Shown here piece after piece: positions 2,739-62,411 of a DNA stretch of 64,000 bases; the first letter of the stretch is position 1, and each line of letters opens with the position of its first letter. A program made the position numbers and the translations under genes. This stretch comes from Spirochaetota bacterium (GTDB taxonomy: Bacteria; Spirochaetota; Spirochaetia; CADAEX01). The stretch is taken from positions 88 through 64,087 of the forward strand of contig WQTU01000136.1 of NCBI GenBank assembly GCA_009786125.1. Reading direction: 5' to 3'. Under the pieces are notes generated by a model that was not told the origin of the DNA, did not search any database, and saw only the letters and a list, made by a program, of their open reading frames with translations.

Positions 2739-3782
2739 ATGAAACAGGGAATATTTGTTTTTATTTTTGGTTTTATAGTAACGGTTTTTGGTTTTGCTCA
2801 GGCAGATTCGCGGTCTGCTGCTACTATCAATCTAATTAGGACCGAACAGATAACGGTTGGGCAGCTTCGTGCCGAAGTGGAACCTATGGAAAGATATGGC
2901 GGGCGGGCATTAACCCAAAGCGAGCGTCTTCAAATACTGGATGTAATGATCAATGAGCGGCTGGTTTTGCAAGCTGCTGAGCGGGACAGAGTTATAGTTT
3001 CAGAAAACGAAATTAATGGGCAAGTTCAAGAGTTGCGCAATAATATGGCTCAGCAGCTCGGGCGGCAACCTACTGATGCGGAATTTGCACAGGCAGTAAG
3101 GAATGAGAGCGGTCTGGAAGTGGCGGCTTTTAGGGAAGAGCTTCGCAGGCATATGACTCTGCAAAAATACTTATTTCATAAAAAGGGAGACTTGATTAAT
3201 TCCATAAGACCGCCCACGGAGCAGGAGATTCAAGCGCAGTTTAATCTGGTAAGAAGACATTTTGTTCGTCCGGAGACAATCCGCTTTTCAATGATTTTGG
3301 TTCCTCATGGTACGGATGAAGCTTCCAGAACCGGAGCCAGGGAATTGGCTAATCAGTTGGCCGCGGAAATTGGTACAAACCCTGCAAGGTTTGATGCGGT
3401 TGCAGCTCTCAGCGGACCTAATTCCGGCTTTCGGGCGGGTGACGCTGGTTTTCTTCCGCGGAATAATGAAGCGATGGCTGTTGTTGGCGCTGATTTTATG
3501 AATGCTGCTTTTAGGCTTCGGCATGGCGAAGTATCAGGATTAATCGAAGGTGCAGGCGGGTTTCAAATTATCAAGATTACTGAAAAATACGAAGCGAAAA
3601 ATCTGGAGCTGGGCGATATTTTCCAGCTTGGGACAAGAATTACGGTTAGGGATTATATTGGGCGCAGTATGTACTTTGAGAGGCAGCAGGCGATTTTAAA
3701 TCAGGCAACTCAGGAACTTGTTACAGAATTAAGAGCTGGCAGAGGAACTGTTCAGATACATGAAAGAAACATAAGCTGGTAG
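2739..3782 (+). CDS. SurA/PpiC-type periplasmic chaperone / peptidyl-prolyl isomerase
   Basis: Signal peptide. SurA-N-like 'INERLVLQAAERD'. C-terminal rotamase-like 'GDAGFLPRNN..GEVSGLIEGAGGFQIIKI'. RBS AAGGAG. Confidence 0.75.
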   Translation: MKQGIFVFIFGFIVTVFGFAQADSRSAATINLIRTEQITVGQLRAEVEPMERYGGRALTQSERLQILDVMINERLVLQAAERDRVIVSENEINGQVQELRNNMAQQLGRQPTDAEFAQAVRNESGLEVAAFREELRRHMTLQKYLFHKKGDLINSIRPPTEQEIQAQFNLVRRHFVRPETIRFSMILVPHGTDEASRTGARELANQLAAEIGTNPARFDAVAALSGPNSGFRAGDAGFLPRNNEAMAVVGADFMNAAFRLRHGEVSGLIEGAGGFQIIKITEKYEAKNLELGDIFQLGTRITVRDYIGRSMYFERQQAILNQATQELVTELRAGRGTVQIHERNISW

Positions 3783-3800: not shown

Positions 3801-5972
3801 ATGAGTAATATAGAAAAGAACAAGTTCTTTCCGGATTTAAAAGAACACGCAAGCGAGGGCAGCAAGCCTTTCCCGTATGGAGAATTCGCGGAAATACGGA
3901 ATCAGCAAACAGGGGTGCGATACAGAAACTCCAGGCAGCTTAAAAGCGAAGAAATCGAAATACTTAAACAAAACTTGTGCGAAGCAGATGACTGGTCTTT
4001 AATATCTGTTACAGATCCATTTGATCCTTTGTTAATAAAAAGAACTGTTTTTAAGGGCATTGTCCGCATCGGGCGCTTGGAGAAAGGCATTATAAAGGAT
4101 AAGGACAGGGAATGCTGCTGCGGAATTTCAGACAGCTTTATAATATCATCAGACATAGGAGATTACTGCGCTATTCATAACAACAGATATATTTCTGCTG
4201 TTATTGCAGGTAACTATGTTATTTTATCGGACAATAACGAAATATATACTACAGAAGATGCAAAGTTCGGTAACTGTATTTTAAAAGAAGGCGAAGCTGC
4301 GGCAACTTTGCGAAAAATCAATCTTGTGAACGAAAAAGGGGGCAGAGCTATTTCTGCTTTTAGCGGCATTACAGGCGCAGATGTTTATCTCTGGGTAAAA
4401 CAGCGGGAATCAAAAGAATTTGTTTCGCGGCTGGAATCTTTTACTTGCAAAAGCTTTGATGCCAAAAGAGGTTATTACAGTTTTATCGATGACCATACTG
4501 TTATAAAAGGAACATCTTTAATAAGAAATATTATGACAGGAAGGAGCTGCAGAATAGAGAGAGCCACATGCGTTGATGATGTTACCATAAATTCTTCTGC
4601 TTTAAAGCCTGTATTGCTGGCTAATAACGTTGTTGTAAAAAAGGGAATTATTGGGGAAGGGTGTAGAATCGCAAATTCTTCTGTTGCAGAAGATTTTATT
4701 CTTGAGCCCGGAAGCTCGCTCGACAAGGGCGCGCGGTTTATCCACTCTTTTCTTGGAAGCTGTTCCAATGTTGCCTGCTGCGAAGTCATTAGCAGCTTTA
4801 TATATCCGTCTCACCAGCAGCATCATAACAACTCGTTTCTTATTGCATCTGTTGTAATGGGGCAGAGCAATATTGCAGCAGGTGCAACTTTGGGGTCGAA
4901 TCATAATAGTCGGGCAAATGACTGCGAAATGTGGGCAGGAAGGGGTTTCTGGCCGGGTCTTTGTTCTTCGATAAAGTTTAATTCTAAATTCGCGTCTTAT
5001 TGCCTTTTGGCTAAATCTGATTTTCCTTATGAGCTTAACATCTTTCTGCCTTTTGCTCTGGTAAATAACAATGTGTATGAGGACTCTCTTGAGATAATGC
5101 CTGCTTACTGGTGGCTTTATAATATGTATTCGCTGTTTCGCAACTACTTTAAATTCAAGGACAGGAGCCAAGGGCTGGATTCCATAAAAGGAGTTGAGTT
5201 TGATTTTATGGCGCCTGATACCGCAGAAGAGATTCTGTCTGCCATCTCTTTTATCGAAGATATTTGCAAATCAAATACCGGTGAAACTTCTTGCATTAAA
5301 ATCCCTGCGACCGGAATCGAAAATTCAAAGCGAAAAGTAAAGATTCTTTATCCTGATAAATCAAAAGCTGCTTATATGGAAATGCTTACCTTTTACTGCG
5401 GCAGTGTAATTTTTGAATTTATCGGGAAGTCCGGCGTTGCCTTAATCACTGCACAAATTTTGGAACATGAGCCAGCAGGTGTAAACAAAACTGCCGGGAA
5501 GTTGGATGATAACATCAGTCTAATTTTAAAAAGTAATTGCTCACAAGAAAGGGAGACGGAGTGGGTTAATGCGTGCGGCAGGCTGCTTCCGAAAAAATCT
5601 ATTGCAAATGCAGTAAAAGCTGTTCTGGGCGAAACAGAAACTGTTATTGAATCTTGGGAAGATATGCACGATTATTTTAATGAAGAGTTTGAATTGTATG
5701 AATCGAGAAAACTTTTTCATGCGCTCTCTATAGCTATGATGCTTTATAAAAAAGAAAAACCGGACCATGATCTTTTGAGTAACTTAAAAGCAGATTATGA
5801 AAAACTGCTTTTAAAAATCGAACAAGAGATAATCAAGAGCAGAAAAAAGGATTACGATGACCCTATAAGAAAAGCTCTTTTTTCAAATGAACAAGAAATG
5901 GAAAATGTGCTTGGGGTTTTGGAAAAAGATCCGGTTCTCGGCAGGTTTAAAGCGAAGTTTTCCCTGCGCTAG
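3801..5972 (+). CDS. Large conserved hypothetical protein, probably DUF4954-type (left-handed beta-helix-like)
   Basis: 723-aa ORF 18 nt after the SurA-like gene. 'LKSEEIEILKQNLCEADDWSLISV' and 'GSNHNSRANDCEMWAGRGFWPG' resemble DUF4954 as I recall it. Family assignment not verifiable here. Confidence 0.7.
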   Translation: MSNIEKNKFFPDLKEHASEGSKPFPYGEFAEIRNQQTGVRYRNSRQLKSEEIEILKQNLCEADDWSLISVTDPFDPLLIKRTVFKGIVRIGRLEKGIIKDKDRECCCGISDSFIISSDIGDYCAIHNNRYISAVIAGNYVILSDNNEIYTTEDAKFGNCILKEGEAAATLRKINLVNEKGGRAISAFSGITGADVYLWVKQRESKEFVSRLESFTCKSFDAKRGYYSFIDDHTVIKGTSLIRNIMTGRSCRIERATCVDDVTINSSALKPVLLANNVVVKKGIIGEGCRIANSSVAEDFILEPGSSLDKGARFIHSFLGSCSNVACCEVISSFIYPSHQQHHNNSFLIASVVMGQSNIAAGATLGSNHNSRANDCEMWAGRGFWPGLCSSIKFNSKFASYCLLAKSDFPYELNIFLPFALVNNNVYEDSLEIMPAYWWLYNMYSLFRNYFKFKDRSQGLDSIKGVEFDFMAPDTAEEILSAISFIEDICKSNTGETSCIKIPATGIENSKRKVKILYPDKSKAAYMEMLTFYCGSVIFEFIGKSGVALITAQILEHEPAGVNKTAGKLDDNISLILKSNCSQERETEWVNACGRLLPKKSIANAVKAVLGETETVIESWEDMHDYFNEEFELYESRKLFHALSIAMMLYKKEKPDHDLLSNLKADYEKLLLKIEQEIIKSRKKDYDDPIRKALFSNEQEMENVLGVLEKDPVLGRFKAKFSLR

Positions 5973-5974
5973 AT

Positions 5975-6062
5975 TGCGCCCCGCAACAAGTCCGGGATAA
6001 TAACATCCGTGTCGCGGCGCAGGACGCGGCCTGCTTCGCAATGCCGCAGATCCCGGGAGTTT
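5975..6062. repeat. GC-rich repeat module (family member E1)
   Basis: Starts 3 nt after the stop codon. 6023-6049 (GACGCGGCCTGCTTCGCAATGCCGCAG) matches 23597-23623 at 24 of 27 positions. 6004-6030 resembles the 22562/60434 module. Confidence 0.75.
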
Positions 6063-6166: not shown

Positions 6167-6913
6167 ATGAAGTATAGAGATGTTTTTACAATTAATTCTT
6201 TTGATGTTGGCACAACAGGTTTTGCAACGCCTGTAGTGCTTTGCGCAATAATGCAGGAAACAGCTTCCAGGCAATGCTCAGATCTTGGCATAAGCATTGC
6301 TGACCTTGCAAAACATAATTTGACATGGATGCTTGCAAGACAATATGTAAAGTTTTCAAACTATCCTGCATGGAGAAGTGTTGTAACATCAGAAACATGG
6401 CCAAGAAATAAAACAGGTATACGCGCTCTTCGTGACTTTATTTTAAAAGATGAAGAAGGGCGGGAACTTGCGAAATCAGTCACAAATTGGATGCTTATAG
6501 ATCTCAATACAAGAAGGCTGTGTAAGACCGACGAAATTCTGAATGATATTGCAATAACGGAAGAATCAATAATGCCCGAAGATTTTAAAATCAGAGTTGA
6601 GAAATTTGACGGAGAAAAAACTACTGCGATTTTTAGGGTAGGGGCTTATGATTTTGATATGAACGCGCATGTTACAAGTATGTGTTATATAAAATGGATT
6701 TTGAATACAGTTCCGCTTGAATTTCATAAAACACATTCTCTCTCGGAGCTTTCTGCAGAATATATCGAAGAAGTATCATCCGAAGTTGATATTGAATCTG
6801 TAGCATATAGGAAGGATAATATTTTTTACCATGAGCTTAAAAACATGGAAACAGAAAAAATTGTTTTTCGGGGTCAGACAGCGTGGCAGGCGCATACCAA
6901 TATTTTACACTGA
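6167..6913 (+). CDS. Acyl-ACP thioesterase
   Basis: 248 aa. The N-terminal hot-dog region 'FTINSFDVG..PVVLCAIMQETASRQC..LTWMLARQYVKF' is typical of the FatA/B-like family. Confidence 0.8.
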   Translation: MKYRDVFTINSFDVGTTGFATPVVLCAIMQETASRQCSDLGISIADLAKHNLTWMLARQYVKFSNYPAWRSVVTSETWPRNKTGIRALRDFILKDEEGRELAKSVTNWMLIDLNTRRLCKTDEILNDIAITEESIMPEDFKIRVEKFDGEKTTAIFRVGAYDFDMNAHVTSMCYIKWILNTVPLEFHKTHSLSELSAEYIEEVSSEVDIESVAYRKDNIFYHELKNMETEKIVFRGQTAWQAHTNILH

Positions 6914-21268: not shown

Positions 21269-22540
21269 ATGTATTTTTCAAGGCCAATGAATCTAGGCAT
21301 TATTGGTTGTCCGGGGGCGGATCATTTTACGAATGATATTGTTCACAATCTTAAGAGATATTACAGCCGCAAACACCAGCAGCATATTGATCTTATATCA
21401 AAAACGTATGGAATTGAAAAAAATGAGATCGAAAGAAAGATCAATTTATTAAAAGATATTCAAAATGCCAATCTTTGGGAAGATCTCAATAGATATCCGG
21501 ATATTGAAAAATATCGAGTCCCTGAGTTTAAAGTTCCTGTAAAATATACAAGATTTGCCAATGGCGAATACAAAGCAGATATAAAAAAATCTGTAAGAGG
21601 AATGGATGTTTACATTGTCCAGGATGTTGAAAATCATTATGGCATAGATATAAATGAGGACGGCAAAGAACATAAACTCTCTGTAAACGACCATGTTTTT
21701 ATGCTGTTTGCGACAATTGATGCAGTAATACAATCCGGAGCAAGCTTTGTATCTGTTGTTGTGCCTGCTTATCCGTATGCGCGCCAGCATAAACGCAAAG
21801 GAAGAGAAGCTCTTACAGCAGCTCTTTTTGGAAGAATAATCGAAAACATGGGAGTCGCCCGAATAATCACTCTAGATATACACTCCAAAGAAATAGAAAA
21901 CTGTTTTAACAAGTGCAGAATGGAAGATCTTCATGCATCATATCAGATAATAAAAATGCTTTTTAACTTTATTGATGTAGAGAAATCAAATTTAGTTATT
22001 GTTTCGCCTGACTCAGGAGCTGTTGAAAGAAACAAGTTTTTTGCTGATAACCTCAAAAAACCGCTTGCCATGCTTTACAAAGAAAGAGACTATTCCAAAA
22101 TTTCCAGCGATGCAAAAGCAAGCAATATTACAGAGATGAAGCTGCTGGGAGATGTAAAGGGAAAAACAGTTTTTATGGCAGACGATATGGTAGGGACCGG
22201 CGGAACAATGATTGAAGCAATGCGGCGTCTTCGGGAACTTGGCGCAGAAAAAATTATTTGCGCAATAAGCCTTCCGCTTTTTACAGGCAATGCTATTGAA
22301 AATTTTGATAAAGCTTACAGAGACGGTTACTTCGATAAAGTAATAGGAACAAATGCCGTGTATCATACAGATGCGCTTTACGCAAAAGAGTGGTATGTAA
22401 GCGCCCCGATATCAAACCTCTTTGCCCGTGTTATTTCAAGATTGCATCAGCAGAGAACTTTAACTCCATTGATTGACAACAGCGAAATAATTCAGCGCCT
22501 GTTAAGCGACCCTCAAATTACTTTTTCTTATGGCTTATAA
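21269..22540 (+). CDS. prs: Ribose-phosphate pyrophosphokinase (long form)
   Basis: 'RFANGEY', 'PAYPYARQHKR', 'ITLDIHS', and PRPP-binding loop 'MADDMVGTGGT'. Confidence 0.85.
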   Translation: MYFSRPMNLGIIGCPGADHFTNDIVHNLKRYYSRKHQQHIDLISKTYGIEKNEIERKINLLKDIQNANLWEDLNRYPDIEKYRVPEFKVPVKYTRFANGEYKADIKKSVRGMDVYIVQDVENHYGIDINEDGKEHKLSVNDHVFMLFATIDAVIQSGASFVSVVVPAYPYARQHKRKGREALTAALFGRIIENMGVARIITLDIHSKEIENCFNKCRMEDLHASYQIIKMLFNFIDVEKSNLVIVSPDSGAVERNKFFADNLKKPLAMLYKERDYSKISSDAKASNITEMKLLGDVKGKTVFMADDMVGTGGTMIEAMRRLRELGAEKIICAISLPLFTGNAIENFDKAYRDGYFDKVIGTNAVYHTDALYAKEWYVSAPISNLFARVISRLHQQRTLTPLIDNSEIIQRLLSDPQITFSYGL

Positions 22541-24077
22541 AGTTCTTCCCGGCGCTTCATTGCGACATCTCTGTCGCTGCGCCGGGCGCAACGTCCATGT
22601 TGCAGGCGTTGATATTGGAACCTCTTCGATAAAAGCCGGTATAATAGATAAAAAAGGAATTCTTGCATCGTACCGGAAAATTCGCTACGAAGAAATTGGC
22701 GGAGATATTTATAACTGGAAAACTGATTTTTGGGTTAATTCCCTTAAAAAAGCGCTAAAAGAGCTCCCGCTGCTCGAAAAAGCAGAAGCAGTTGTTTTTA
22801 GCGGAAGCGGCCCTTCTGTGATACCTATATGCCGGGACGGCAATTATATGGCCGAGTCTCTATTGTGGCTCGATAATAAAAAAACTGATATAGCCGATAA
22901 CATTTCTTTTTTTCTTCCCAAAATAGCCTGGTATAAAGAAAACAGAAAAGATATTTATGCGAATGTTTCTTGCTTTCTTACGCTATCCGGCTTTTTTCCC
23001 TATTTGCTGACAGGAGAATTAAAAGAACCGCTTCCGAATAAAGAATTTACTCCTTATATATGGACAGAAGATTCCATAAAAAAAGCAGGGCTTGAGCTTA
23101 CTCTTTTTCCGCAATTTGTATTTGCCGGGAATCTTGTGGGTTATGTCTCCGAAAAAAGCAGCAGGGAATTTTATTTGCGAAAAGGGATTCCTGTGTTTGC
23201 CGGAGCCAGCGATTACCTTATGGCTCTTTTGGGAACAGGCGCGCTTTTTGAAGGAGCTGTCTGCGATAGGGCAGGAACTTCAGAGGGTATTAATTATTGC
23301 ACAAAAAAAAATGTAAAAGCAGATACCCTTAGAATACTACCGCATATAATAGAAGATTTTTATAATGTTTCCGGAGTAATTGATTCTTCCGGAAAAAATT
23401 TTAGCTGGTTTAAAAAAATATCAGGACAGGAAGAAAAGTCTTATTCAGAACTTATTGGGGAAATATCTAAGGTTATACACAATGACGACTCGCTCTATTT
23501 TTTACCCAGCGCTCGCTTTGCACGTGCTTTGCACGTTTCGCGGCGCGCCAAGGCACTGCGTCCGTACTCACAAGGGGCACTTTGCCACTGCGCCGGGACG
23601 CAACCTGCTTCGCAATGCTGCAGTCCGGATCTGGGAAGAAATTCTTTGTGGAAGTATAACAACGGCGCATTCACAGGGCTTGAGGTAATGCCGGAAGCAG
23701 GTGCTGCTGTTTTAAAAGCAATTGGTTTTTCTGTATGCGAGGTTATAAGAATTATGGAATCACATTCTCTTGCTGTGGAAGAAATAAGGCTGTCCGGCGG
23801 ACAGGCGGAAATCCCTTTGTGGAACCAGGTAAAAGCAGATATGACAGGAAAAAAACTGCTTGCCCCAGAGGTAAAGGATAGCGAGCTTATAGGGTGTGCG
23901 TGCGTTGCATTTACAGGACTTGGCGTATACAACTCCCTGACGCAAGCATCGCAGGAAATGGTGCGTATAAAAGATGTCTATACGCCTGATGCAAAAGCTT
24001 ATTCCGGGTTCTGTAAGCTCTTTGAAGATTATTCTGATATTTTGCGCAAGTTTGAGCTTTTTGCAAATTCTTTGTAG
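22530..24077 (+). CDS. FGGY-family carbohydrate kinase carrying two in-frame GC-rich repeat insertions
   Basis: 'GVDIGTSSIKAGI' N-terminal motif and C-terminal 'RLSGGQAEIPLWNQVKADMTG'. Start at ATG 22530 or TTG 22560. Confidence 0.8.
   Translation: MAYKVLPGASLRHLCRCAGRNVHVAGVDIGTSSIKAGIIDKKGILASYRKIRYEEIGGDIYNWKTDFWVNSLKKALKELPLLEKAEAVVFSGSGPSVIPICRDGNYMAESLLWLDNKKTDIADNISFFLPKIAWYKENRKDIYANVSCFLTLSGFFPYLLTGELKEPLPNKEFTPYIWTEDSIKKAGLELTLFPQFVFAGNLVGYVSEKSSREFYLRKGIPVFAGASDYLMALLGTGALFEGAVCDRAGTSEGINYCTKKNVKADTLRILPHIIEDFYNVSGVIDSSGKNFSWFKKISGQEEKSYSELIGEISKVIHNDDSLYFLPSARFARALHVSRRAKALRPYSQGALCHCAGTQPASQCCSPDLGRNSLWKYNNGAFTGLEVMPEAGAAVLKAIGFSVCEVIRIMESHSLAVEEIRLSGGQAEIPLWNQVKADMTGKKLLAPEVKDSELIGCACVAFTGLGVYNSLTQASQEMVRIKDVYTPDAKAYSGFCKLFEDYSDILRKFELFANSL
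22562..22608. repeat. GC-rich repeat module (E3) inside the FGGY kinase N-terminus
   Basis: The 47-mer GCGACATCTCTGTCGCTGCGCCGGGCGCAACGTCCATGTTGCAGGCG matches the reverse complement of 60434-60480 at 41 of 47 positions, counted by hand. Confidence 0.85.
23508..23633. repeat. GC-rich mosaic repeat (E4) inserted in frame in the FGGY kinase
   Basis: 23512-23537 resembles the 3' module of 61775-61897 (TCGCTTTGC.CGTGCTTTGCACGT). 23597-23623 matches 6023-6049 at 24 of 27 positions. It encodes about 41 atypical Cys/Arg/Ala-rich residues. Confidence 0.8.
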
Positions 24078-25509: not shown

Positions 25510-25676
25510 CCGATGAAGCGAGAACCGCGGACAAGCGAAGCTTGCACATGGTCGAGCGAGGAGGTAAACAAAAGGTTCGCGTGAGCGTACCTCGCTGCAA
25601 GCAGCGGAATCCGCGCCAAAGGCGCGGTGGGCGCAGGGCAAGCCCTGCGGTCGCTTTGCACGTAATACCTTTTATT
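25510..25676. repeat. Full-length GC-rich repeat element (E5), intergenic nusG-rplK
   Basis: The 5' end CCGATGAAGCGAG, the middle GAGCGAGGAGGTAAACAAAAGGTTCGCG, and the 3' end GGTCGCTTTGCACGTAATACCTTTTAT are shared with 61775-61897 and partly with 52216-52282 and 36969-37212. Contains several perfect 7-bp hairpins. Confidence 0.85.
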
Positions 25677-36968: not shown

Positions 36969-37212
36969 ACGACGAACGAGGGTCGCGGGCAAGCAGAGCT
37001 TGCACATGACCGAGTGAGGAAGTGATTGAAAAGCTGAAAGGCTTTTTCTGTTCTCCGACGAAGCGAGGGTCGCGGGCAAACGAAGTTTGTACATCCGCCG
37101 AATAAGTGAGAGTCGCGGGCAGCTTGCTTGCACACAAAGTACCCCTTGCGGGTGTGATCGAACGATGAGGTGGACAAAGGGGCTATGCTCCTTGTGAATC
37201 GGGCTAGGAGGA
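36969..37212. repeat. Cluster of GC-rich repeat units (E7) directly after rpsG
   Basis: Two or three tandem units: CGACGAACGAGGGTCGCGGGCAAGCAGAGCTTGCACATGACCGAGTGAGGAAG (36970-37022), CGACGAAGCGAGGGTCGCGGGCAAACGAAGTTTGTACAT (37057-37095), and GAGAGTCGCGGGCAGCTTGCTTGCACA (37109-37135). Confidence 0.85.
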
Positions 37213-57852: not shown

Positions 57853-58616
57853 GCGCTACTTCTTTACTTGCCTTGCTTAATAAGACATTTGGCAGCGATA
57901 AAAAAGAAGAAAACTATGCGCTTATTCTTTGCGGCAATGTATTTGTAAATGGCGAAAAAATTAAAAATCCCGCAGAAAAAGTCGATAAAAACTCCAAAAT
58001 TACGATAAATAAGAAAAAATATGTCTCACGAGGCGGTTTTAAACTTGAATACGCGCTTGATTTTTGGAAAATTCCAATAGAAGGAAAAATACTTATTGAT
58101 GCAGGCAGCTCTACAGGCGGTTTTACAGACTGTCTTCTTAAAAGAGGCGCACAATTTGTCCATTCTGTTGATGTTGGTTATAATCAGATAGATTATTTAC
58201 TAAGAAATAATAAAAGAGTAATTCTTCATGAAAAAACAAATATCATGGATATAGAATCTCTTTTGCCGCCTGCTGATATAGGTGTAGCTGATCTTTCTTT
58301 TCGCTCAATAACAAATGCTGCTTCAAAAATTCTTGATTTAACCAAGGAAAAAAAGCTAATTGCCTTGATAAAACCACAGTTTGAAACAGAAAAATCTAAT
58401 CTTGAAAAAGGAGTTCTAGAAAGCTCTTTGGCACTTGGAGAAACACTTTTTGCAGTAATAGATAAGTTATTTAATGAAAAATCTTATGTTTGGGACCTTG
58501 TTCAATCGCCTATAAAAGGCACAAAAGGCAACCGCGAATTCTTTTTTTTAATAACAAGAGAAGAGACTGAAAAAAGTAAAATTAAGGAAAAACTGGCGCT
58601 CCTACTGCCGGATTAG
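57849..58616 (+). CDS. tlyA: TlyA-family rRNA 2'-O-methyltransferase (hemolysin A-like)
   Basis: S4-like N-terminus. 'YVSRGGFKLEYAL' and SAM motif 'DAGSSTGGFTDCLL'. Confidence 0.9.
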   Translation: MSATSLLALLNKTFGSDKKEENYALILCGNVFVNGEKIKNPAEKVDKNSKITINKKKYVSRGGFKLEYALDFWKIPIEGKILIDAGSSTGGFTDCLLKRGAQFVHSVDVGYNQIDYLLRNNKRVILHEKTNIMDIESLLPPADIGVADLSFRSITNAASKILDLTKEKKLIALIKPQFETEKSNLEKGVLESSLALGETLFAVIDKLFNEKSYVWDLVQSPIKGTKGNREFFFLITREETEKSKIKEKLALLLPD

Positions 58617-58623
58617 ACCCTAA

Positions 58624-58650
58624 AAACATACCATTGGTATATTTTTGGCA
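58624..58650. terminator. AT-rich hairpin after tlyA (AAAAACATACCA-T-TGGTATATTTTT, one mismatch)
   Basis: Read from the sequence between the convergent tlyA and metH genes. Weak because the stem is AT-rich. Confidence 0.3.
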
Positions 58651-58747
58651 AGGGTCCTCGACTGTTATCTATGGTGTACGCACAATCCCTAGACATGCTA
58701 CTTGGATAATAGCCGTGTGAGGCTACATGTTATTCCGCTGCCGCAGA

Positions 58748-61396
58748 TTATAGGTTACATTTTCCCGCAAGACTTGATGCAGTTTTTACAGCTTCAACGC
58801 CATCCTTCGAGTAAGCTGCGCCTATTGATTCTGCCCACTCTTTTGTAACAACTGCTCCGCCAACCATAAAGCTGGCTGTTATGCCTTCTTTTTTTGCAAG
58901 TTCAATAACTTCCGGCATTTTTACCATTGTTGTTGTCATAAGCGCAGAGAGCGCAATTATGTCCGGCTCAAACTCTTTTGCATTTTTTATAATCTCGTCT
59001 GCTGGTACAGATTTACCTAGGTCTTTTACATCAAAGCCATAATTGCGCAGCATGAGTATTACAATATTTTTTCCAATGTCGTGTATATCTCCCTCGACAG
59101 TTGCAAAAAGTATTTTGCCTTTTGCACCGGCATTCTTGTCTTCGAGTTTGGGCTCAAGGACAGTGAAGCCTTTTTTCATTGTCTCTGCGCTTGCAATGAG
59201 CTGCGGCAAAAAATACTTTTTCTTGTCGTAAAGCTCGCCCACATGCATAATTGCGGGAATCATTATTTTTTCGAGAATATCTTTTGGCGCTGTGTTGAGC
59301 TCAAGTGTTTTCTGCACATGAGTTATTATGTCATCGCGGTTGCCGGAAACAATGCAGTCGAAGACTGGGCTTGTTGCTGCGTTTGCACCAGCGCTTGCGT
59401 CTGCGTCTGCGGCTGTGTCTGCACTTGCGTCCGGGCTTGCGCCAGCGCCTTTCGCAGCAGGGTGGGGCATGGGCTGTATGCTGTTGGGCATAATGCCGGG
59501 GTCCGGGTTTGCCGAAGCAAATTTAAGATACGCCAGCGCATCAACATCTTTGCCGGTTAGCAGGTCGGATGCATGTTTTGCCCACATTAGCTCGATTTCT
59601 CCGGGATTTGCAATTACATGGGTCATTCCATACGCAGCAGCCATTGAAAGAAAAGCAGAGTTTATTCTTTTTCTCTCCGGCAGCCCGAAAGAAACATTAG
59701 AAAGCCCGGCTAACGAAGAAAAGCCGTTTTCTGCAGCCCATTTTATTGTTTTAAGTGTTTCCAGCGGAGCCTGCTGGTTCGATGAGACAGTCATAACAAG
59801 CCCGTCTATAATTATATCGTTTTTTGTAAAGCCCAGTTTTTCTGCCTCATTATAAACTTCTTTTATAATTTCGATTCTTCGTTCTGCTGTCTCGGGGAGT
59901 TCGTTGTCCGCAAGAGGCAGCAGAACGAACATTGCGCCGTATTTTGCCGCAACAGGCAGGAGTTTTTCGATTTTTTCTTTTTCCCCGGATATTGAATTTA
60001 TTAAAGCTCTTCCGGGATATTTTCTGAGAGCTGCTTCTACTACTTCTGGCGACGCAGAATCTATTACAAGCGGCAGTTTGCACCAAGGCGCAAGCATGTC
60101 GATTATTTTAATTACTGTATTTTTTTCGTTAATGCCGGGCATCCCTGCGTTTATGTCTAACATGCTTGCGCCGGAGGCTTCCTGTTCCATTGCCATTTTG
60201 CGTACCAGCGACAGTTTGCCCTCAAGCATTTCTGATTGAAGCCTTTTCTTGCCCGTAGGATTTATGCGCTCGCCGATAACCTGCAGCCCTGACTTTTTGT
60301 TTACGATAAGGGCTTCGGTTGCGCTCGAAAGTGCAACAATATCTTTGGCAAAAAAGCAGTTCTTCCTGGTTTTGACCTTGACTTCGCCGCGGGCTTCGGT
60401 TTGGGTTTGCGGAGCTGCGGCTTGGGGTAAAAGCGGCTGCAACACGGATGTTGCGCTCGGCGCAGCGACATGGATGTCGCAATAAGGCTCCGGTTTGTAT
60501 TGCGCAAGCTCTTTTGCAAGCAGTTTTATGTGCTGCGGAGTTGTGCCGCAGCAGCCGCCCATAAGATTGATTCCCGCGCTTGCAAAAGATTCTGCGAAGG
60601 ATGCAAATTCTTCCGGTCCCATTGGAAAAATGGTTTTGCCGGATTCTATTCTTGGCATTCCGGCATTTGGCTTTGCAACCAGAGGAACTTTCGAAATAGG
60701 TTTAAGACGTTCTATTATTTTTAGCATTTCTGCAGGGCCGGAAGAGCAATTGCAGCCAACAGCATCTGCTCCAAGGCTTTGAAGCGTTATTAGCGCAGCT
60801 TCCGGCGATGTTCCGTTAAGCGTTCTGCCTTCCGGCTCATAAGTCATTGTTACTATCGTAAAAGCATCAGTGAGTTCTTTAACGGCGATTAACGCTGCAC
60901 GCGCTTCCTGAATATCCATCTGCGTTTCTATTACAAAAAGATCGCAGCCGCCGTCCAGCAATCCTCTTGCCTGACGCTTAAACATTTTTACAGCATCTTC
61001 AAACCTGATTTCCCCAAAAGGCTCGATAAAATGCCCTATGGGTCCAATATCGCCTGCAACAAGCGTATTTTCTCCTCCTGCTTTTTTTGCCGCCTGCGCA
61101 AGAATCGAATTTATATTTTCTACATCGTCCCGGCCGTATAACGCAAGTTTATAAAAATTCGCCCCAAATGTGCATGTATAAATTATGTCCGACCCTACCT
61201 CGGAATAGCTTTTATAAATTGCCCTTTGGATTTCCTTGTTCTCGCTTGCCCATATTTCCGGGCACACTCCTGCGGGCATTCCTTTTTTCTGGAGTTCTGT
61301 TCCTGTTGCTCCGTCGAGCACAAGAATTTTGTTTTTAAGCAATTCCGAAATTACTTTTTTATCTGTCATATATTCCCTTCTTAGTTTATTAAACAA
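58748..61396 (-). CDS. metH: Cobalamin-dependent methionine synthase lacking the AdoMet activation domain
   Basis: 882 aa. Hcy-methyltransferase N-terminus ('LDGATGTEL', 'GGCCGTTP'), pterin-binding domain, and B12-binding domain ('GDIHDIGKNIV'). Two GC-rich low-complexity linkers. Confidence 0.92.
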   Translation of the reverse strand: MFNKLRREYMTDKKVISELLKNKILVLDGATGTELQKKGMPAGVCPEIWASENKEIQRAIYKSYSEVGSDIIYTCTFGANFYKLALYGRDDVENINSILAQAAKKAGGENTLVAGDIGPIGHFIEPFGEIRFEDAVKMFKRQARGLLDGGCDLFVIETQMDIQEARAALIAVKELTDAFTIVTMTYEPEGRTLNGTSPEAALITLQSLGADAVGCNCSSGPAEMLKIIERLKPISKVPLVAKPNAGMPRIESGKTIFPMGPEEFASFAESFASAGINLMGGCCGTTPQHIKLLAKELAQYKPEPYCDIHVAAPSATSVLQPLLPQAAAPQTQTEARGEVKVKTRKNCFFAKDIVALSSATEALIVNKKSGLQVIGERINPTGKKRLQSEMLEGKLSLVRKMAMEQEASGASMLDINAGMPGINEKNTVIKIIDMLAPWCKLPLVIDSASPEVVEAALRKYPGRALINSISGEKEKIEKLLPVAAKYGAMFVLLPLADNELPETAERRIEIIKEVYNEAEKLGFTKNDIIIDGLVMTVSSNQQAPLETLKTIKWAAENGFSSLAGLSNVSFGLPERKRINSAFLSMAAAYGMTHVIANPGEIELMWAKHASDLLTGKDVDALAYLKFASANPDPGIMPNSIQPMPHPAAKGAGASPDASADTAADADASAGANAATSPVFDCIVSGNRDDIITHVQKTLELNTAPKDILEKIMIPAIMHVGELYDKKKYFLPQLIASAETMKKGFTVLEPKLEDKNAGAKGKILFATVEGDIHDIGKNIVILMLRNYGFDVKDLGKSVPADEIIKNAKEFEPDIIALSALMTTTMVKMPEVIELAKKEGITASFMVGGAVVTKEWAESIGAAYSKDGVEAVKTASSLAGKCNL
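60434..60480. repeat. GC-rich repeat module inside the metH Hcy/pterin linker
   Basis: The reverse complement GCGACATCCATGTCGCTGCGCCGAGCGCAACATCCGTGTTGCAGCCG matches 22562-22608 at 41 of 47 positions. It is translated in a different frame from that copy. Confidence 0.85.
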
Positions 61397-62150
61397 TTCC
61401 TGTTAATGCAATAACTGATTTTTGCGGTATAAGCAAAAAGCTTTCTGTTATATTAACTTCTATTTTTTTCATTTCAAGCAAATTGTAAAAGATTTTTTGT
61501 GTTTCAAGCGATAGGTCTCCGTATCCGGGAGAAAATCTTTTGGAAAAAAGCTTTTCTGATTTTCTTATAAGCTCTTTGCTGTAAAGAGACATAATGTAAT
61601 CCAGCCCCCTGTCTGCAATTTCGCCTGCTGCTGCGTCAAGAACAACAGCTTTGGTCATGTTTTCCTTCTGTTCTTTCTCTATAAAATCCGCTATTTCTTT
61701 GCCGCATGTTATTCCCATCAGCAGAATTTTATTCGCTCCGGAGATGAATTTGCATAATGAGCTGCTTATTATTTCCGAATGAAGCGAGTGTCGCGACGTG
61801 CTTGCACGCTCGTGACCGAGCGAATGAGGAAACAAAGGGTCGCGCAGGGCTCTGCCTTGCGGTCGCTTTGCGCGTGCTTTGCACGTAATACCCTTTATCT
61901 CAATTTTTTCTGATGGGGCTGCCTGACTTGCAGCAGGATATATCAGAATTTTATCCTGATCCGCGACTTCAAAATTACTTTCCAGCATTACGCCTTTTAA
62001 GTTTACAAGAGAGGCTGTCTCATCAATCCATGCTACAATCTCTTTTCTGCTTGATTCAGCAAGTTCTGTTTCTTTTTGTCTATACCCCAGCCGAGAGAAA
62101 ATAACTCTATAATCTGGCTTGGGCAATATATTATTGATAAACCTGAGCAT
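61389..62150 (-). CDS. Stand-alone methionine synthase activation-domain protein with in-frame GC-rich element
   Basis: The C-terminal 'RFSPGYGDLSLETQKIFYNLL' is typical of Met_synt_B12. 8-nt overlap with metH. Carries a 41-codon foreign-looking insert. Confidence 0.8.
   Translation of the reverse strand: MLRFINNILPKPDYRVIFSRLGYRQKETELAESSRKEIVAWIDETASLVNLKGVMLESNFEVADQDKILIYPAASQAAPSEKIEIKGITCKARAKRPQGRALRDPLFPHSLGHERASTSRHSLHSEIISSSLCKFISGANKILLMGITCGKEIADFIEKEQKENMTKAVVLDAAAGEIADRGLDYIMSLYSKELIRKSEKLFSKRFSPGYGDLSLETQKIFYNLLEMKKIEVNITESFLLIPQKSVIALTGIV
61775..61897. repeat. GC-rich repeat element (E9), 123 nt, in frame within the activation-domain gene
   Basis: CCGAATGAAGCGAG...GGTCGCTTTGCGCGTGCTTTGCACGTAATACCCTTTAT. 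Both termini and the central AAACAAAGGGTCGCG are shared with 25510-25676. Confidence 0.85.
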
Positions 62151-62350: not shown

Positions 62351-62411
62351 GCTGATTGCCCATTCGGGATGCTTTGCGATTCTCGATTGAATAAATCAGC
62401 GGTTTCCTAGA
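62351..62411. promoter_or_regulatory. Copy 2 of the palindromic motif, left arm split by a 21-nt GC-rich insertion
   Basis: 62379-62411 ATTCTCGATTGAATAAATCAGCGGTTTCCTAGA matches 2402-2434 at 32 of 33 positions. The left-arm remnant GCTGATT lies at 62351-62357, followed by GCCCATTCGGGATGCTTTGCG. Confidence 0.5.

Follow-up and report, generated by a model that had tools for sequence, protein, structure and literature searches.

The window analysed here is a 64,000-nt stretch of contig WQTU01000136.1 (positions 88 to 64,087; assembly GCA_009786125.1), which comes from an uncultured gut spirochaete lineage. Two of its genes carry within their reading frames a copy of the same short palindromic unit. 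The first gene encodes an FGGY-family carbohydrate kinase (22530..24077, + strand; 515 aa, against 459 aa in orthologues; Pfam FGGY_N and FGGY_C). The second encodes a cobalamin-dependent methionine synthase, MetH (58748..61369, - strand; 873 aa as called on the source contig, without the activation domain), whose mechanical open reading frame (ORF) extends to 61396. The kinase copy occupies 22549..22605 on the + strand and the MetH copy 60437..60493 on the - strand. Each is 57 nt long, runs from 5'-CCGG to GCAG-3' in the kinase, and 49 of the 57 bases are identical between the two.

The similarity was first noticed as a 47-nt module. The preliminary description counted 41 identical bases of 47 between 22562-22608 and the reverse complement of 60434-60480, and a script returned the same count. 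The repeat is thus real, but its length was underestimated: a repeat finder extends the similarity to 60 nt at 85% (22549-22608 vs. 60434-60493), and the unit proper is 57 nt. A 31-nt pattern allowing up to three mismatches matches only the kinase and MetH sites and has no match in 100 dinucleotide-preserving shuffles. The peptides originally read from the module, RHLCRCAGRNVHVAG in the kinase ORF (22530-24077) and DIHVAAPSATSVLQP in the MetH ORF (58748-61396), are as given. The kinase copy is read as ...PGASLRHLCRCAGRNVHVAG... in the 515-aa ORF and the MetH copy as ...PEPYCDIHVAAPSATSVLQP... in the minus-strand ORF. The coordinates also bear out that the codon phases differ, base 1 of the unit being codon position 2 in the kinase and position 1 in MetH. 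Both copies do lie in the sense orientation of their host genes, but no significance can be attached to this with only two cases, and a third copy is antisense to its neighbouring genes. It should be noted that the two regions form GC-rich islands against a genomic background of about 40% GC, which could favour an explanation by chance, composition or a shared protein motif. The empty shuffles speak against such an explanation, as do the different frames, which leave the two proteins no peptide in common.

In the kinase, the unit starts six codons into the gene, directly before the first beta-strand and the DIGTSS phosphate-binding motif, and accounts for residues P7-A25 (PGASLRHLCRCAGRNVHVA). 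Residues 7-25 are absent in all 10 of the closest homologues (alignment A1), and the copy is also missing at the related loci L012 and L013. The orthologues begin MNDKVLAVDIGTSS, with nothing at the insertion site, and in DNA the window's ATGGCTTATAAAGTTCTT-(57 nt)-G(G)CGTTGATATTGGA aligns with ATGAATGATAAAGTTCTGGC(T/A)GTTGATATTGGA of the orthologues. The kinase ATG at 22530 aligns with the ATG of the orthologues; in each of the three genomes it overlaps the end of prs. What had been called an N-terminal extension is instead an insertion between residues 6 and 7, behind a start codon whose position is conserved. The possibility that the real start lies downstream of the module is excluded because no in-frame ATG, GTG or TTG is found between 22608 and DIGTSS, an essential motif; TTG at 22560, the sole remaining in-frame candidate, is inside the unit itself. 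An AlphaFold2 model of the kinase (from an 11-sequence alignment) is poor, with a mean predicted local distance difference test score (pLDDT) of 47, and is usable for the N-terminal domain only. In it, residues 1-19 have a pLDDT below 50 and a strand spans residues 23-29 (HVAGVDI), which weakly suggests that the 3' end of the unit may supply the start of strand beta-1.

In MetH, the unit accounts for residues P302-Q320 (PEPYCDIHVAAPSATSVLQ). The Pfam domains are S-methyl_trans (residues 25-296), Pterin_bind (375-595), B12-binding_2 and B12-binding, so that the insert sits in the linker between the homocysteine-binding and pterin-binding domains. Seventeen orthologues (16 aligned, plus the fragment at L031) lack it and read KYKP-[VI]LP-K directly after the homocysteine-binding domain, where the window has 57 nt extra. 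Deletion of the CCGG...GCAG stretch leaves AAA joined to CCGCTTTTA / AAA joined to CCGCTTTTACCC, matching AAACCTATTTTA / AAACCTATTTTACCA of the orthologous locus L019. The expectation that relatives would lack the segment is thus borne out for both genes.

Each host gene has a further in-frame insertion of its own. The kinase carries a second one at 23514-23633 (+), of about 40 aa and GC-rich (ARFARALHVSRRAKALRPYSQGALCHCAGTQPASQCCSPD), which none of the 10 homologues has. Its composition is mosaic, with repeats at 61859-61886 and 25636-25663 matching the 5' part (23509-23536) and an intergenic element at 6022-6049 matching the 3' part (23596-23623; 89%). One kinase homologue (P0008, 490 aa) has an independent insertion of about 33 aa (EKQFAGEEQFAVEESLQLNYTPVQLNCTPGNPD; A1 columns 382-414) some 11 residues downstream of the window's second insertion, which marks the region as permissive. 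In MetH, a 72-nt insertion of 24 aa (AAAPQTQTEARGEVKVKTRKNCFF) lies at 60350-60421 (-), downstream of the 57-nt unit and separated from it by 15 nt; none of the orthologues has it, and there is no other copy in 79 kb of the contig. The MetH linker before the B12-binding cap domain (59373-59484, -) is GC-rich and of low complexity in Ala/Asp/Ser/Pro (PAAKGAGASPDASADTAADADASAGANAATSP), and is longer than in most orthologues.

The length and composition of the unit make it harmless to a reading frame. In both the kinase and MetH the 57 nt are 19 codons, in-frame and free of stops, and all three sense frames of these two copies and of the third are stop-free over the 20 codons translated. Across 17 copies stops within the unit are rare; one antisense frame usually has one. 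Because 57 is three times 19 and the sense frames are open, a sense insertion adds 19 residues in any phase, and only the structural tolerance of the site matters. As the phases differ, the same DNA yields two unrelated peptides, and no selection at the protein level is needed to explain this. The two insertion sites, the extreme N-terminus of the kinase and an inter-domain linker of MetH, are plausibly permissive. Peptides predicted within the read-through inserts, by which translation could be recognized, are LRHLCRCAGR, SLRHLCR, DIHVAAPSATSVLQ, NVHVAGVDIGTSSIK and PEPYCDIHVAAPSATSVLQPLLPQ.

The inserts might alternatively be skipped, the ribosome hopping over them by way of matched flanking codons (programmed translational bypassing, cf. 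T4 gene 60 and the byp elements of yeast mitochondria). Stable hairpins do lie inside the inserts, and matched codons are present (GGC at 22551/22605 in the kinase, CCG at 60493/60436 in MetH), but the latter follow from the unit's own CCGG start and a (G/C)CG flank. No stop follows the putative take-off codon, and ordinary read-through suffices, since the sense frames are open and the length is divisible by three. Bypassing is also, to our knowledge, very rare in bacteria, and we regard it as highly improbable here.

Only slightly better is the case for assembly artefacts, i.e., short-read chimeras. Repeats are classic sites of misassembly, and all the contigs available for this locus apparently derive from one data set. 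Against this, both inserts are exactly 57 nt, in-frame and stop-free, with the correct continuation of the same gene on both flanks, whereas an assembly error at a repeat would lead into another locus, not add one unit. Three assemblies agree, and the name of the 122.6-kb ENA contig to which the window belongs (ERZ27257345:k141_4582885) implies an assembly k-mer of probably 141, longer than the 57-nt repeat. An artefact is therefore very improbable.

The unit has a defined architecture. A 7-bp outer stem encloses hairpin A and is followed by a 2-nt spacer, hairpin B and a terminal AG. Hairpin A is GCGACA-TCCA-TGTCGC and hairpin B is GCRRCR-TCCR-TGYYGC. In the kinase copy the outer stem pairs 22549-22555 with 22579-22585, and hairpins A and B lie at 22562-22577 and 22588-22603; in the MetH copy hairpin A is at 60480-60465, hairpin B at 60454-60439, and the outer stem has one A-G mismatch. 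The kinase stretch folds at -31.9 kcal/mol (z = -3.3), and the minimum-free-energy folds of the kinase, MetH and third copies and of a nested unit (see below) share one common architecture. The kinase copy scores 74.3 bits with the covariance model of the family, of whose training set it is a part.

The pairing is conserved across copies. In an alignment of 17 copies (A2), 91% of the pair cells are standard; shuffles give 82.8 +/- 0.9, and sliding the partners gives 23-52%. Hairpins A and B are paired throughout (100%), with GC/AU double changes and not a single A-C mismatch, though the search pattern had allowed them. Double changes are also seen in 7 of 7 pairs of the outer stem, which was outside the search pattern. 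RNAalifold recovers both hairpins independently. The third copy illustrates the compensatory changes: in hairpin B, GCAAC/GTTGC has become GCGGC/GCCGC, and in the outer stem, GCGC/GCGC has become GTGT/ACAC. No family of Rfam 15 matches the unit; in the window only tRNAs reach the gathering score, and nothing appears in 22450-22700 at E values up to 1. 

The antisense strand of hairpin A holds ATGGATGTCGC, and two ORF calls start with MDVAI... inside the repeat, one at L128 4503-5378 (-) and one in the window at 60470-60724 (+). Such starts probably give rise to false N-terminal extensions when genomes of the clade are annotated.

The kinase and MetH copies are not the only ones. The source contig could be extended by 7.3 kb and 8.2 kb, so that 79 kb were examined, and a third copy was found at the window-equivalent position 65863-65919 (L101 6232-6288, -). 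It is 75-77% identical to the other two and lies between two genes, antisense to both. At least 17 more copies are present in related metagenome-assembled genomes (MAGs). A degenerate two-hairpin pattern, GCRRCRTCNNTGYYGC-N10-GCRRCRTCCRTGYYGC, which permits unpaired purine/pyrimidine combinations, had 14 matches in 185,579 species genomes (596 Gb), and 14 of 14 were in the four closest Spirochaetaceae MAGs (Lab288P1bin105, Lab288P3bin165, Lab288P4bin6 and EPI_MAG_00173), whose proteins are 67-77% identical to those of the window. The Lab288 MAGs are presumably of termite-gut origin. One further copy is in a low-GC JGI contig (L107), and a covariance model (R1) found more copies in related loci. 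With this architecture recurring in more than 20 copies of one clade, the explanation by chance or composition, already refuted by the shuffles, the pattern search and the covariation, retains a practically negligible probability.

In the relatives, 17 of 17 copies checked lie between ORFs of at least 110 aa. Several have a stop codon at a distance of -7 to +7 nt, and some are between convergent genes. Tandem arrays with a period of about 58 nt also occur, with two units at L123 and three at L132. A diverged relative of the family lies between genes of the window at 5954..6052 (+). It is 99 nt long owing to an internal expansion, overlaps the stop codon (5970-5972) of a DUF4954 gene, and scores 29.1 bits with the covariance model (E 0.001); its 3' half resembles part of the second kinase insertion (6022-6049 vs. 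23596-23623, 89%).

Several other searches were made. A blastn-short search with the unit found no copies in about 58 kb of orthologous loci from relatives. A strict 21-nt core pattern met only chance matches in high-GC genomes among genome contigs, a collection that does not include the source genome. A 23-nt pattern had 19 matches in JGI metagenomes, of which the relevant ones are L106 (identical to the source contig), L107 (a true relative) and L118 (partial); the others are GC-rich chance matches. A six-frame peptide profile found no other carriers in a set of 5.8 billion proteins, a search that was underpowered, as a 20-residue match cannot reach significance and the window's own proteins were not returned. 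The family is restricted to one clade of Spirochaetaceae. No description of such repeats in this clade was found in the literature searched, and the family is apparently undescribed.

The clearest sign of mobility comes from a relative. At L124 (Lab288P4bin6), one unit has its hairpin B interrupted, where stem meets loop, by a nested 55-nt unit (positions 3265-3319) that shares the stem / hairpin / hairpin-AG architecture. Removal of the nested unit restores 57/58 identity with a neighbouring unit, the ambiguity of the boundary being at most 1 nt. This nested unit and the empty sites in the orthologues of the kinase and MetH genes show jointly that the unit inserts as a discrete piece, without target duplication or terminal inverted repeats. 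The idea of a mobile or recombinogenic element, acting at the nucleotide level and tolerated in permissive protein regions, is thus supported by orthologues without the segment, by the position of the kinase start and by the further copies. A 3-bp CCG target duplication, considered for the MetH copy, was rejected, being absent at the kinase, third and nested copies. A tRNA-like cloverleaf, an intron, an intein and CRISPR were likewise rejected on size and architecture.

Beside the nested unit, it can be noted that L127 (Lab288P3bin165) has a unit and downstream flank near-identical to those of L124, preceded by remnants similar to the nested segment at its 3' end. L124 and L127 may be orthologous.

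Some of the same features could be read differently. The unit might be a selected structural motif of RNA or DNA, such as an mRNA-stabilizing or terminator-like pair of hairpins, spread by recombination, gene conversion or template switching, with the intragenic copies regulating translation or mRNA decay of the kinase and MetH. The covariation of the hairpins is in keeping with this, as are the relatives' copies that adjoin stop codons or lie between convergent genes, the strong fold 19 nt downstream of the kinase start codon, and the failure to find a transposase (see below). However, unit-precise insertion at three unrelated sites, one of them nested, is hard to achieve by homologous recombination. 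The third copy is antisense to both neighbours, no T run follows the hairpins, and Rfam has no match. We therefore hold a selected structural motif to be improbable, if less so than bypassing or artefact.

The preferred reading, in which the kinase and MetH stretches represent copies of a lineage-specific mobile palindromic repeat resembling repetitive extragenic palindromes (REPs), is in our judgment likely. How close the resemblance is can be seen from the known systems. The Rickettsia palindromic elements (RPEs; Ogata et al., 2000, 2002) are described, in the summaries of PMC10969869 and PMC3733652, as in-frame insertions in unrelated housekeeping genes, which remain intact. Elements of the RPE-1 type measure about 100-150 bp, each family being described as encoding a conserved peptide (PMC10969869). 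The resemblance to the unit is in behavior only: both are dispersed palindromes that occur between genes and also in-frame in intact genes, at positions where orthologues have no insert and the protein fold can accommodate one. The unit differs in being 57 nt and in being read in two phases as unrelated peptides. The hosts also differ, RPEs being in an obligate intracellular alphaproteobacterium and the unit in a gut spirochaete. Membership in an RPE family is unlikely, given that the pattern matches of the genome-wide scan were confined to Spirochaetaceae MAGs.

Another parallel is offered by the GTAG/CGTC REPs (Di Nocera et al., 2013, PMC3733652). These are GC-rich stem-loops found mostly downstream of coding regions and between convergent genes, and their single or dimeric units, when inside ORFs, encode 20-30 residues, often in linkers, loops and N-termini. 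CGTC REPs have no dedicated transposase and are reported in Spirochaetes (PMC3733652). The unit is similarly a short GC-rich stem-loop element, chiefly extragenic and sometimes inside ORFs. It has, however, no unpaired GTAG or CGTC (TGTC/CCTC) tag and no CCA tail; in A2, the bases before hairpin A are TTTATC/TTCATT and those before hairpin B are AT/AC/GC. In CGTC REPs the stems are 8-9 bp, start with A/T and have a loop of 4-5 nt, whereas the stems here are 6 bp, start with GC and carry a TCCR loop. Moreover, REP dimers are mainly head-to-head, head-to-tail ones being described as negligible (PMC3733652), while the two hairpins here are head-to-tail inside a larger stem. What the unit shares with REPs in general is the conserved stem-loop pairing and the many dispersed copies, mostly intergenic or near gene ends.

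REPINs are inverted REP doublets with a cognate REP-associated tyrosine transposase (RAYT) flanked by REPs, and are compared here together with the bacterial interspersed mosaic elements (BIMEs) of E. coli (PMC3116915, PMC2817692). Like them, the unit is discrete, non-autonomous, built of hairpins, devoid of terminal inverted repeats and target duplications, clustered and lineage-restricted. Unlike REPINs, in which inverted REPs form one long hairpin, its hairpins A and B are direct, with the same polarity of the TCCR loop. No RAYT was seen in the 79-kb gene lists or in the approximately 280 kb searched with TnpA queries. BIMEs alternate in unit orientation, whereas the tandem arrays here are direct repeats of the 57-58-nt unit. 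Finally, the MITEs (miniature transposable elements with inverted repeats) that fuse in-frame to genes (intragenic ERIC, BOX and Nezha-type; reviewed in PMC10969869) are likewise small, non-autonomous, and sometimes intragenic and read through. MITEs are defined by terminal inverted repeats and target-site duplications, and the unit has neither: its ends match at 4 of 11 positions (by eye), and no target duplication of more than 1 nt is found at the nested insertion.

These properties appear to fit hairpin-guided single-strand transposition, of the IS200/IS605 or RAYT kind, better than the cut-and-paste transposition of MITEs. In such a scheme the unit would move as a discrete piece of single-stranded DNA, its hairpins being recognized by an enzyme acting in trans, for which an HUH/Y1 transposase of the RAYT or IS200-IS605 type is the best guess. 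Two copies have entered coding sequence in this organism; in the relatives the unit is found between genes. Inside genes, the copies would be transcribed and translated, probably as passengers that are neutral or slightly deleterious; extragenic copies may serve as hairpins at mRNA 3' ends.

Several points weigh against the mobile-repeat reading. No transposase is among the called genes in the 79 kb of source contig, and tblastn with the TnpA of IS200 and IS608, a weak test, had no match in about 280 kb of the clade. The analogy to RAYT systems is loose, since the GTAG/CGTC tags are lacking and the two hairpins are direct, not inverted. Only three full copies are present in 79 kb. The nearest relatives have at most 77% protein identity, and the insertion boundaries are uncertain by 1-3 nt. 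The ENA, Logan and JGI contigs with these copies are 100% identical and probably one data set, so that the sequence has no independent replication. Translation of the inserts is something we infer from the reading frames, and the kinase model is of the low quality given above.

A bolder version would class the unit as a single-strand hairpin transposon of Spirochaetes, of a kind not described before and mobilized by a so far unrecognized enzyme, and would take its length of 3 x 19 nt and its stop-free sense frames for adaptations to coding sequence. We think this doubtful, though somewhat less so than a selected structural motif. If true, it would provide a standing source of new 19-residue segments in conserved enzymes of a gut bacterium that is not intracellular.

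The mobile repeat, as we prefer to see it, extends the occurrence of selfish palindromic DNA inside coding genes beyond Rickettsia and a few REP-rich bacteria. The presence of the same unit in two phases shows that the constraint is on nucleic-acid structure and not on the peptide. Such units enlarge or distort gene calls and may lead to false N-terminal extensions, spurious ATG starts within the hairpin (MDVAI...) and apparently novel linkers. They also mark permissive sites, here in an ASKHA kinase and in MetH, and their strict restriction to one clade could make them a lineage marker. Three other GC-rich in-frame insertions in the window are also lineage-specific, and two of these consist of other repeat families, a hint that repeats may have colonized genes unusually often in this genome.

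A second GC-rich repeat family is also present. Its members start with CGAWGAAGCGAG..GTCGCG..GCTTGCAC and end with ..GCGGTCGCTTTGCACGTAATACC. One copy (61775-61890, + strand) is in-frame (about 45 aa) inside a 253-aa minus-strand ORF (61389-62150) for a small MetH-activation-like protein. The insertion site is hypervariable, the orthologue at L019 having its own DDVVGNQ tandem repeat there. Intergenic copies lie at 25510-25675, 36970-37140 and the window-equivalent position 70036-70100, inside ribosomal-protein/transcription operons: the nusG-rplK gap has such sequence, and the gap between rpsG and the EF-Tu gene has three copies that are tandem-like.

Another recurrent sequence is a 33-nt motif, ATTCTCGATTGAATAAATCAGCGGTTYCCTAGA, present with 97% identity at 2402-2434, 62379-62411 and L101 ~6350-6385; two of these sites resemble each other over as many as 55 nt (96%). 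The motif reached no Rfam gathering score. Two of its copies are about 50 nt upstream of start codons (62464 and L101 6428), and the third is about 100 nt upstream of a called ORF of 63 aa; the motif may be a shared promoter or leader element. On a larger scale, the window shows positive GC skew between about 14 kb and 58 kb, beyond which the skew drops to around zero or just below. The change, at about 58000-59000, coincides with a switch in gene orientation, and could be either a replication-related switch or an effect of gene strand.

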